Assembly (NCBI GenBank): GCA_964347045.1
Contig: CAYFXC010000001.1
Location: 187,256-251,255 of the forward strand
Length of the DNA stretch: 64,000 nucleotides
Direction of reading: 5' to 3'
From: an uncultured archaeon
GTDB taxonomy: Archaea > Asgardarchaeota > Hermodarchaeia > Hermodarchaeales > Hermodarchaeaceae
Made by a program: the position numbers and the translations under genes. Positions within the stretch are counted from its first letter, which is position 1, and the number at the start of each line of letters is the position of its first letter. The notes beneath the pieces were generated by a model. It was not told the DNA's origin and ran no database searches. It saw only the letters and a list, made by a program, of their open reading frames with translations. Below, piece after piece: positions 35,036 to 44,175 of the stretch.

Positions 35036-35989
35036 ATGACGTTTATGACGAATGAATGTACCATGTGTGGGGCCACTTCGATTATTTCTCGACCATATTC
35101 AGGTGAGGTACTCTGTGAGAGGTGTTTTCGCGAATCTGTTATCAACGCTATTCGGATGGCTATTTCGAAATTCAATATGCTGCAACGAACAGATCGAATC
35201 GCCGTTGCTTATTCGGGTGGCAAAGATAGTACTGTGCTCTTGGCGGTTCTTGTGGAAATCCAACAGCGGTTTCCTGAATCGGAAGTAATAGCAATTACTC
35301 TTGAAGAAGGGAGTAAACATGACCGTGATCGTCAAAAGGTGTTACGAACCGTGACGAACACGCTCAACGTCGAACATGTGACTTCCTCATATCACGACCT
35401 GTTTTCACTTACCCTGGATGAGGTTGCCACACAAACCCAAGCCATGCAATCACCCCTTTCCCCTTGTGCATATTGTGGAACTCTTCGGAGACAGGGATTA
35501 AATTTACTGGCTCGAAAAATCCAGGCTGACAAACTTGCTTTAGGACATAATCTTGATGATGAAATTCAATCGATGCTTATGAACCTCATCCGTGGAGATT
35601 TGCTACGCCTATCACGAATTACGCCCTATCTTAAAGGAGTTCCCGACTGGCTAATCCCTCGTATTAAACCCATGTATCACCTCCTTGAAAGTGATATTGC
35701 CTTATTTTCACAATTACTTGGATATCCCATATACCATCCTCCATGTTCCTACAAAGAAACATCTTTACGCTCAGAAATACGGAAGTGGCTCAACACCTTC
35801 GAAATCGAACATCCAGGATCCAAATACAACCTACATGCAACCATCATGAAAATCATCGAATCCCTTCAAAATGATGAAGAGGCTCCATATCAGAAGTGTC
35901 AGGTTTGTGGTGAAATCACCTCTCAGCGAGTCTGCGCAGTATGTCTTCATAGAGAAACCCTTGGATACTCATCTACAAAAAAGGGGTAA
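35036..35989 (+). CDS. tRNA 2-thiolation protein TtuA/Ncs6 family
   Basis: Zn fingers at both ends, SGGKDS, CAYC, GHNLDD. Confidence 0.9.
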   Translation: MTFMTNECTMCGATSIISRPYSGEVLCERCFRESVINAIRMAISKFNMLQRTDRIAVAYSGGKDSTVLLAVLVEIQQRFPESEVIAITLEEGSKHDRDRQKVLRTVTNTLNVEHVTSSYHDLFSLTLDEVATQTQAMQSPLSPCAYCGTLRRQGLNLLARKIQADKLALGHNLDDEIQSMLMNLIRGDLLRLSRITPYLKGVPDWLIPRIKPMYHLLESDIALFSQLLGYPIYHPPCSYKETSLRSEIRKWLNTFEIEHPGSKYNLHATIMKIIESLQNDEEAPYQKCQVCGEITSQRVCAVCLHRETLGYSSTKKG

Positions 35990-35994
35990 AGGGT

Positions 35995-36340
35995 GGACGG
36001 AAGCCCCGACGGTCGTCAACCCTCACTGATGCCGTACTCACCGCTAGGTCTCAGACCCGGATCTCGGAAGCATCAACAGTACAGGTTTACGCTGCTCCCT
36101 CCCGGGTCTCGCTGGGTTCACCTGATAAAGACGATTCAGCCCTTCCTACGAAAAGCCTACCGCCACCAGCGATCCTCCGAGGCGGATCGTCACTGCCTTG
36201 AACAGTGAGTCGTACAACAGGTCAGAAAGCCTAACGTCGGCATTCAGCCCGCCGTAGAGAGCATCTGCGGTACAGGGGAGCCTTAGCCAGCCCGTAGCGG
36301 TGCTGCGGGACTTCTAGCCCCCCGCCTAGGCTCACCGTCC
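35995..36340 (-). ncRNA. ffs: Archaeal SRP (7S) RNA with a 31-nt insertion in Alu helix 3
   Basis: Terminal helix GGACGG/CCGTCC; Alu GGGGG..TCCCC-TGTA-CCGC; helix 6 with GGAG; helix 8 GAGACCC-GGGA-GGG-AGCAG. Confidence 0.9.
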
Positions 36341-36373
36341 AATCAGCTCACACACTCTCGCGATATTTAACCT

Positions 36374-37512: not shown

Positions 37513-37621
37513 TGGTGGGCCGAGAGGGATTTGAACCCTCGACCATCGCGGTGTAAGCGCGATATCATAGCCTTCTAGTCTAAAAGGGAAAAACCCATGA
37601 AGATAGCTAGACCATCGGCCC
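37513..37621 (-). tRNA. tRNA-Val(TAC) with D-loop intron (37573-37604)
   Basis: TCGCG-CT-TAC-AC-CGCGA; CTAG/CTAG BHB helix flanking a 32-nt insert. Confidence 0.92.
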
Positions 37622-42731: not shown

Positions 42732-44037
42732 TTATAATTCGTCAAAAGTGTGAATGCGCATTTTCGCTGGTTTCTTAACAATATTACCCACTCGTACTCC
42801 GATTATTAATTCGATGCCGCGATTTTCTGCGATGTCAATAAGTCGTTGGGTCACAACGCCATCTAATATGAGGACTTTTGCTTTTTTGAGTTCTTGTAGT
42901 TCGTTTGCTAGCTCCCCAACATGAGTTTCTTTGAGTTGTTTGAAGTCATCATCCAAAATAACAGACATCATCGTCTGCTGAATTTTTTCAGCTGAGCTAA
43001 GGATGGGTTTTGGTAAACCCAAATCTTTTACCATAGGTTCGGGTTTTTTAGCCGGCTTTGTTCGCGTAGGAGGACGCGTCTTCTTAGGACGCGATTCCTT
43101 AGGTTTTTTGGCTGGAGCCCTACGAGTGCGCTTCTTTTCTTTTACTTTATCCGGCGTGGAGGGTGTTTTGCTTTTAGGTCTTCCAATAACTTGTACAGAT
43201 GGAACCTTATTTCGGAGGGCTTTTGTTACTTCTTTATGTGTTAATTCTTCGACTTCTCTTCCTGTTGGTGCACGTGCCACATAATCGACTTTAATAACTT
43301 GTGAGAGCTCTTTGAAAATCAGGTCTCCTCCACGATCTCCGTCTAAGAATGCAATAACGGTTTTATCCTTTGCAATGTCTGCAATTGATTTTGGAATCGA
43401 TGTTCCCTCGACGGCGACAGCATTTTTAACACCTGAGCGTAGAAGGGCGAGTACGTCAGCACGTCCTTCCACAATAATGATGGTGCTTGAGGTTTTTGCT
43501 TCTGGCCCAGCGGGAAGTTTTTCTTTCCCAAGTTTAATAATCTCTGCAGTACGTGCCTCTCGTAATACTGTATCTGTCATTTCTTGGGAATCAGGAGAAA
43601 TTTCTCCTTCCCAATCACGAAGGAGATCAACTGCACGATCAATGATTTGTTTACGCTTCTCTTCTCTGACATCCTCTACTTTTTCGAGACTGATTTTAGC
43701 AGCACACGGACCAACTCTATCAACTGTTTCAATTGCCGCTGCAAGAATTGCAGTTTCTGTTCTATCAAGACTACAAGGTATTGTGATGGTACCTTGTGAT
43801 TTTCCACTTTCAGTATGAAGTTCAACTTTTATTCGACCAATTCGCCCCGACTGTTGTAATTCCCTTAGGTCCAAATCTTCACCGATTACCCCTTCACATC
43901 TATGATATGAAGTGTAGGCCCTCTGTTTGACCAAATAGAGCACCTACCACATCGGGGGTTTCAACTACTCCATCTATTTCGATTTTTCCACGAATACAAT
44001 ATTTTGTGGTTCCAGTACTTTCCGCATTTGCTCCCAT
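42732..44037 (-). CDS. dnaG: Archaeal DnaG (exosome-associated primase-like), interrupted by a 28-nt BHB intron at 43886-43913
   Basis: Exon 1 [19 protein letters not shown]; exon 2 [32 protein letters not shown]; 1306-28=1278 nt, in frame. Confidence 0.93.
43886..43913 (-). other. Putative mRNA intron with bulge-helix-bulge splice motif
   Basis: GCCT/GGGT 4-bp helix, 3-nt bulges ACA and AAT, inner 9-bp hairpin CTTCATATC/GATGTGAAG. Confidence 0.85.
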
Positions 44038-44175
44038 AATCGCCACCTTGTGAAAGTTATTTGTGATATTTTTGGTGTTGGCGTTTGAAACGACGAACGC
44101 CATTTTAGTATGATTTGCGATATTGATTAGATAATATGGTAAGCGTGATGTAATTAGCCACACGAGGAAACTACA

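Follow-up and report, generated by a model that had tools for sequence, protein, structure and literature searches.

The SRP RNA gene and its surroundings

The window analysed here, a stretch of 64,000 nucleotides from an uncultured archaeon of the Asgard class Hermodarchaeia, carries on its minus strand an SRP RNA gene, which is the sole SRP RNA match of an Rfam search in the 2.58-Mb genome. The match to the Rfam model RF01857 runs from 36337 to 35998 with a score of 119 bits, compared with a gathering score of 96.5, and model positions 1–317 are matched colinearly, so that the full model is represented and the order of the gene is not permuted. The terminal pairs GGACGG/CCGUCC add 3 nt on each side and give an RNA of 346 nt (36340..35995). 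Upstream lies a TATA-like box that is preceded by a purine-rich stretch and is kept in three metagenome contigs of relatives, and which we take, from the sequence, to be the putative promoter element of the gene; the T-run downstream is likely to be an archaeal terminator. The features of the gene and those of the neighboring loci discussed below are collected in Table 1.

Table 1. Features of the SRP RNA gene, of its helix 3 insert, and of other loci in the window
Feature	Position	Strand	Evidence or remark
SRP (7S) RNA gene	35995..36340	-	RF01857 match plus terminal pairs; ~346 nt transcribed, 315 nt if spliced
TATA-like box TTAAATAT (putative promoter)	36363..36370	-	Read from sequence; ~26 nt upstream of SRP RNA 5′ end
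T-run CUUUUUUG after SRP gene (likely terminator)	35975..35981	-	Read from sequence
Predicted exon 1, ends ...GGGGGGCUAG	36314..36340	-	BHB rule and homology to insert-free relatives
Proposed 31-nt BHB intron, AAGUCC...GGCUAA	36283..36313	-	cmscan insert; only high-quality BHB in the RNA
Predicted exon 2, starts GGCUCCCC...	35995..36282	-	BHB rule and homology to insert-free relatives
Outer helix h, 5′ strand GGGG, part of helix 3	36320..36323	-	Partner 36280-36277 (4-nt 3′ bulge) or 36278-36275 (6-nt 3′ bulge)
Central helix H, 5′ strand GGCU (exon), G19-U22	36316..36319	-	Partner 36288-36285 in 17/17
Central helix H, 3′ strand GGCU (intron), G50-U53	36285..36288	-	GGCC in 5 relatives
5′ bulge AGA (A23 G24 A25), predicted cut AG/A between 36314 and 36313	36313..36315	-	Invariant, 17/17
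3′ bulge AAGG (or 6-nt AAGGCU), predicted cut AA/G between 36283 and 36282	36281..36284	-	Longer than the canonical 3 nt
Inner helix h′, 5′ strand AGUCC (A26-C30)	36308..36312	-	Partner 36293-36289 in 17/17
Inner helix h′, 3′ strand GGGCU (G45-U49)	36289..36293	-	Partner 36312-36308
Helix 4 loop segment GCUCUC, partner of the rejoined strand (U)AG/GGC	36257..36262	-	Covariation across Asgard families
32-nt D-loop intron of tRNA-Val(UAC), gene 37621..37516	37573..37604	-	Strict BHB; H CUAG/CUAG, bulges CUA and AAG
28-nt hairpin insert in dnaG	43886..43913	-	Spans ORFs 42732-43943 and 43900-44175; 7.6 kb from SRP gene
Second, divergent EndA paralogue, 199 aa	52243..52842	-	PF01974 at 70 bits

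A 31-nt insert in the helix 3 loop

In the cmscan alignment the loop of helix 3 holds 33 nt at a place where the RF01857 model has 2, which locates a 31-nt insert in this loop. With C36337 as base 1 of the RNA, the region reads G15–G20, C21, U22, A23, and G24, followed by the insert (A25 to A55) and by G56, G57, C58, U59, and C60–C63. The insert and its flanks contain a central helix of exactly 4 bp with a 3-nt bulge on the strand and side expected for a 5′ splice site, set between an outer helix of 4 bp and an inner helix of 5 bp, and both of these flanking helices are 100% paired in the 17 sequences of the class that are described below. The motif falls under the relaxed definition of the archaeal bulge-helix-bulge (BHB), which asks for a 4-bp central helix with one or more 3-nt bulges beside it (PMC4731332). 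It is a relaxed BHB and not a strict one: after the AAG of the 3′ bulge the next base, a G, cannot pair with G18, so that the bulge has either 4 nt, with G15–G18 paired to C58–C61 (GGGG/CUCC), or 6 nt, with G15–G18 paired to C60–C63 (GGGG/CCCC), in place of the 3-nt bulge that a strict hBHBh′ motif has at the 3′ splice site.

Cuts placed by the BHB rule, two bases into each bulge, take out precisely 36313..36283, and removal of this segment in silico leaves the hairpin GGGGGG-CUAGGG-CUCCCC in an RNA of 315 nt. The same deletion is the only one that gives this sequence, which is the hairpin found in insert-free Asgard relatives (e.g. G027 and G021). The original prediction had put the SRP RNA at about 346 nt, with a 31-nt extra hairpin in the helix 3 loop that can fold as a relaxed BHB and with a spliced product of 315 nt. 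The model match with its terminal pairs gives that length, cmscan places the insert in that loop, the central helix, AGA bulge, inner helix, and AAG(G) bulge are all present, and the in silico product has the expected size.

A K-turn reading of the bulge was also considered and rejected, the opposite strand being without tandem G·A/A·G pairs as judged by eye. A search for copies of the insert elsewhere in the genome, made as a test of intron mobility, gave none beyond 12-nt chance matches.

Conservation of the insert in Hermodarchaeia

The class comprises 19 genomes of two genera, 16 of them with an SRP RNA match, and yields 17 SRP RNA sequences, all of 338–342 nt. The insert is present in 17/17. 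The comparison across relatives that had been proposed as a check on the motif shows that the bulges are retained along with it, the 5′ bulge as AGA throughout and the 3′ bulge as AAG in 16 sequences and AAA in the remaining one. Every sequence has standard base pairs at all 13 places in h, H, and h′; a U53C change converts G19·U53 of helix H into a G–C pair in 5/17, and C28U and C29U keep wobble pairs in the inner helix. The class is shallow, with 94% mean column identity in the 99-column alignment of the Alu domain (alignment A1, 17 sequences), and because of this the support for the BHB pairs consists of one-sided, wobble-type changes, with no double compensatory changes. The variability of the insert equals that of the rest of the RNA (10/31 sites, 32%, compared with 107/309, 35%) and does not discriminate between readings.

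Contigs from JGI were searched from an anchor downstream of the insert, in a way that fits both the spliced and the unspliced form, and this returned three contigs of 5–15 kb, all of them DNA and all with the insert; the spliced junction pattern TAGGCGGGGGGCTAGRGYTCCCCT had 0 matches in JGI metagenome and metatranscriptome contigs. In one genome of the class (G005) the SRP RNA gene occurs in two slightly differing versions on separate contigs (L021 and L029), both with the insert, which probably reflects strain heterogeneity in the MAG.

The loop-loop interaction of the Alu domain

With helix 4 located by an anchored parse, the loops of helices 3 and 4 are complementary over 5–7 nt in 26 of 30 distinct, automatically parsed Asgard SRP RNAs. 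The loop pairs differ between families, namely UAGGGC/GCUCUA, UAGGGG/CCCCUA, UUGCCG/CGGCAA, UAGCGG/CCGCUG, UAGGCC/GGUCUA, and UAUCG/CGAUA, and the complementarity is the loop-loop pseudoknot of the Alu domain, clearly covarying across the phylum. A control with mismatched partners is weak, since loop sequences are shared among many families and 48% still reach at least 5; the argument for the pseudoknot therefore rests on the distinct covarying pairs and not on that statistic.

The insert splits the pseudoknot strand as UAG/GGC. After splicing in silico the full 6 bp are obtained in all class members, with 5 bp in this genome, and variation within the class follows the pairing: C58U in one genome (G018) is matched by G76A, which is one compensatory change, and G56A in another (G004) changes a G·U into an A–U pair with the pairing kept. 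The product of the in silico removal combines the consensus helix 3 hairpin with the 6-bp covarying loop-loop pairing. The suggestion that the helix 3 loop, once rid of the extra hairpin, can pair with the helix 4 loop is borne out in the sense that a covarying pairing is restored contiguously.

Chance expectation and folding energy

Taking the observed quality as an outer helix of at least 4 bp and an inner helix of at least 5 bp, there is a single BHB in the 340-nt RNA. When the insert was shuffled with the exons kept, a BHB at exactly these borders arose in 0.44% of cases under loose criteria; at the observed quality the figure was 0.01%. When the whole RNA was shuffled, a motif of the observed quality arose somewhere in 10.5%, and because of this the BHB shape alone proves little. 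Two independent definitions coincide at the insert, the single consensus-restoring 31-nt deletion and the BHB rule picking the same two bonds.

The BHB fold is not the fold of minimum energy (−16.0 compared with −26.8 kcal/mol in G000). It is 8–11 kcal/mol less stable than the competing folds in three of the four sequences tested and 5.3 kcal/mol less stable in the fourth (G017). In the competing folds helix 3 closes over the insert, and this closure competes in any such precursor.

Splicing enzymes and introns elsewhere in the genome

Two EndA paralogues, 186 and 199 aa long, are encoded in the genome, together with RtcB (571 bits). The shorter paralogue, whose gene lies on contig C7, has a 6e-45 match to the catalytic chain of the Aeropyrum heterotetramer (3p1z_B). 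The divergent 199-aa paralogue, which lies in the window, matches both the α and the β chains of heterotetrameric EndA (3p1z/3ajv) and is a candidate for the structural β subunit. With these presumptive subunit roles, which we infer from the matches, the pair would fit the two-subunit, broad-specificity (αβ) type. Endonucleases of the (αβ)2 or ε2 type are able to cut relaxed motifs, and a putative endonuclease of this kind is encoded along with RtcB.

Introns are evident elsewhere in the genome. Rfam finds 27 tRNA matches in this 89%-complete genome, seven of them 94–113 nt long and two partial, which suggests that introns, one or several to a gene, conceal many of the tRNA genes. The anticodon-loop introns of the genome have 25–30 nt, a 4-bp central helix, and 3-nt bulges. 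The tRNA-Val gene, 1.2 kb from the SRP RNA gene, has a D-loop intron with the same AA/G 3′ site as the SRP insert; Rfam matches this tRNA at model positions 8–63 only, and ARAGORN misses the gene.

A hairpin insert also interrupts dnaG. Its removal joins two frames into one open reading frame, with the Toprim domain in the downstream part. A BHB at this insert would have GCCU/GGGU as its central helix, ACA and AAU as its bulges, and an outer helix of just 1 bp. Since an open dnaG frame requires the removal of these 28 nt, at least one transcript other than a tRNA must be spliced in this cell, at a hairpin of the same size class.

Inserts in the SRP RNAs of other Asgard families

Family f12 (G029, G040, and G050, two of which are closed 2.8-Mb genomes) has a BHB insert in the same helix 3 loop and of the same size class (30–31 nt, compared with 31 nt in Hermodarchaeia). 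Unlike the relaxed motif of Hermodarchaeia, the f12 motif is a strict BHB, with H CUAG/CUAG, 3-nt bulges GGA and AAC, and 8 bp in the outer helix; its cut site lies 2 nt further 3′ (CUAGGG/C). The mature hairpin, GGGGGGCUAGGGCUCCCC, is identical to that of Hermodarchaeia, whereas the insert sequences are unrelated; even within the family the inner insert sequence of G029 is unrelated to that of G040, the exons being the same. The f12 insert seems to be an independent intron, or one that has slid, rather than the same insertion.

Further inserts, of ~20 to 39 nt, lie in or adjoining the GNRA tetraloop of helix 8 in five SRP RNAs of other Asgard families (L033 in G046, L037 in G058, L035 in G082, L042 in G073, and L046 in G042). 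By eye, four of them have a CGGG/CYYG central helix next to an AGA bulge and a second bulge of AAG or AUG, and removing these inserts leaves CCC-GGGA-GGG; the automatic BHB finder missed them on account of their 1-bp outer helix.

An extra perfect hairpin of 16–25 nt is present between helices 3 and 4 in six RNAs (L006 in G027, L007 in G024, L036 in G035, L039 in G057, L040 in G049, and L042 in G073), where it replaces a UGUAA linker and has no obvious BHB. This hairpin could be a genuine expansion, or else an intron with a different shape.

Nearly all of the candidate introns (SRP, tRNA-Val, dnaG, f12, and helix 8) have AA before the predicted 3′ cut, as AA/G, AA/U, or AA/C, and several in this set show AG/A at the 5′ cut, a pattern that may reflect a lineage-specific preference of the endonuclease.

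Alternative readings of the insert

Were the insert a permanent expansion, the alternative that the original prediction itself had named, the 31 nt would stay in the mature SRP RNA as a hairpin extending helix 3. The Alu domain would then either lack the complete loop-loop pseudoknot when it folds or accommodate the hairpin as the protruding arm of a three-way junction. Folding energies favor such an RNA, as the minimum-energy folds keep helix 3 closed with the insert stacked on it (−23 to −28 kcal/mol, compared with −16 to −19 for the BHB), and G56, G57, and C58 could still pair with the helix 4 loop from the 3′ bulge. The insert is conserved like the rest of the RNA, and the hairpins between helices 3 and 4 of other Asgard SRP RNAs, being without an obvious BHB, suggest that the domain may tolerate expansions. 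Such an expansion would nevertheless leave unexplained both the BHB geometry and the identity of the cut sites with the consensus-restoring deletion, and it would break the 6-bp covarying pseudoknot strand into 3 + 3. The stacked fold, moreover, loses one pair (23–53) in 5/17 sequences, and family f12 reaches the same mature hairpin by way of a different, strict BHB insert. On balance we regard it as unlikely that the 31 nt are retained.

The cuts could also lie in another register, removing 29 nt (GGGGGGCUAGA/AGGCU) or 27 nt (GGGGGGCUAGAA/AAGGCU) and leaving a larger helix 3 loop. These registers do offer 4-bp central helices (GCUA/UGGC and CUAG/CUGG, respectively) with a 3-nt 5′ bulge, and their outer helices are longer, at 5 and 6 bp. 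This comes at the cost of 3′ bulges of 5 and 6 nt and of inner helices shortened to 4 and 3 bp, and the products, CUAGAAGG and CUAGAAAAGG, mismatch the consensus loop and interrupt the pseudoknot strand; U53C is explained only by the 31-nt register. We therefore give the shifted cuts a very small chance. The BHB could, finally, be a processing site at which the RNA is cut and not rejoined, so that base pairing would have to hold two pieces of SRP RNA together. Fragmented stable RNAs exist in other systems, but nothing specific speaks for this reading here. A 5′ piece of 24–27 nt would be held by helices 2 and 3 only; RtcB is present, a split gene occurs in no relative, and all Rfam matches are colinear, which makes a two-piece RNA scarcely credible.

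The proposed splicing pathway

The kept bulges, the restored consensus and pseudoknot, the EndA pair with RtcB, and the dnaG and tRNA-Val introns together argue for the internal intron of the original prediction, and we put the probability that the 31 nt at 36313..36283 are a spliced BHB intron within the SRP RNA at roughly 80%. In the precursor, exon GGCU would pair with the GGCU at the 3′ end of the intron, forming the 4-bp central helix flanked by AGA and AAG(G). The two-subunit EndA would then cut after the second base of each bulge, at AG/A and AA/G, and RtcB would join the exons and probably circularize the intron. The cleavage, the ligation, and the exact cut sites are in this scheme deductions from the sequence. 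Joining would create the 6-nt helix 3 loop CUAGGG, the strand UAGGGC of which could pair with GCUCU(A/C) of the helix 4 loop and so fold the Alu domain, the product being an SRP RNA of 315 nt.

We lean slightly toward the further view that splicing would be an obligatory step of SRP biogenesis in the whole of this Asgard class, with the intron blocking the folding of the pseudoknot until EndA and RtcB have acted and so tying protein targeting to tRNA splicing.

Relation to known BHB introns

Archaeal tRNAs and rRNAs are textbook hosts of BHB introns, as is one mRNA (cbf5). The cbf5 pre-mRNA of Crenarchaeota reportedly carries a BHB intron which, like the one proposed here, lies outside tRNA and rRNA and would rely on the tRNA splicing enzymes. 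Its host, however, is an mRNA, and its analogue in the window is the dnaG insert and not the SRP RNA.

A link between the BHB and SRP RNA is known from Thermoproteus tenax and T. uzoniensis, in which the SRP RNA is circularly permuted, BHB-processed, and circularized (Plagens et al. 2015, eLife, PMC4731332), just as the original prediction had stated of Thermoproteus. If the insert is read as an intron, it shares with that system a maturation that depends on a BHB motif, on the heterotetrameric tRNA splicing endonuclease, and, by proposal, on RtcB. In contrast to the Thermoproteus genes, the gene described here is colinear, with neither permuted segments nor a BHB formed from leader and trailer; its BHB is internal and encloses 31 nt, and the product would be linear and not a circle. 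The site also differs, being the helix 3 loop of the Alu domain, as does the lineage, which is Asgard and not Thermoproteales. Plagens et al. postulated an ancestor of the permuted SRP RNA genes with "simple BHB introns" (PMC4731332), and the Hermodarchaeia SRP RNA gene has this simple form.

Among Asgard archaea, whose tRNA genes are heavily interrupted, EndA-type introns occur at many tRNA positions (Valentin-Alvarado 2024, PMC11291895; bioRxiv 10.64898/2026.10.13.758758). Non-canonical pre-tRNA BHB introns share the build of the insert, as the tRNAs of this genome show, tRNA-Val included, with a 4-bp central helix, a 3-nt bulge, and a size of 25–32 nt; unlike them, the insert has SRP RNA as its host and a 3′ bulge of 4–6 nt. 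The term SRP RNA has 0 occurrences in either of these two papers (PMC11291895 and bioRxiv 10.64898/2026.10.13.758758). Our literature search found no report of an internal intron in SRP RNA, and the only published link between the BHB and SRP RNA that it returned is the permuted, circularized gene of Thermoproteus.

If the intron is real, EndA and RtcB would gain a new class of RNA substrate, an essential protein-targeting particle would depend on the tRNA-splicing enzymes, and the intermediate from which permuted SRP RNA genes have been postulated to arise would be at hand. Independent BHB introns, in the same loop in f12 and in the helix 8 tetraloop of several families, would make SRP RNA a recurrent intron host, and this in the closest archaeal relatives of eukaryotes. 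The SRP insert would also add to the signs, of which the dnaG insert is one, that cut-and-rejoin splicing is routine beyond tRNAs in Asgard archaea. Inserts of this kind lower covariance-model scores (119 bits here, compared with 160–190 in insert-free relatives) and can hide RNA genes from annotation.
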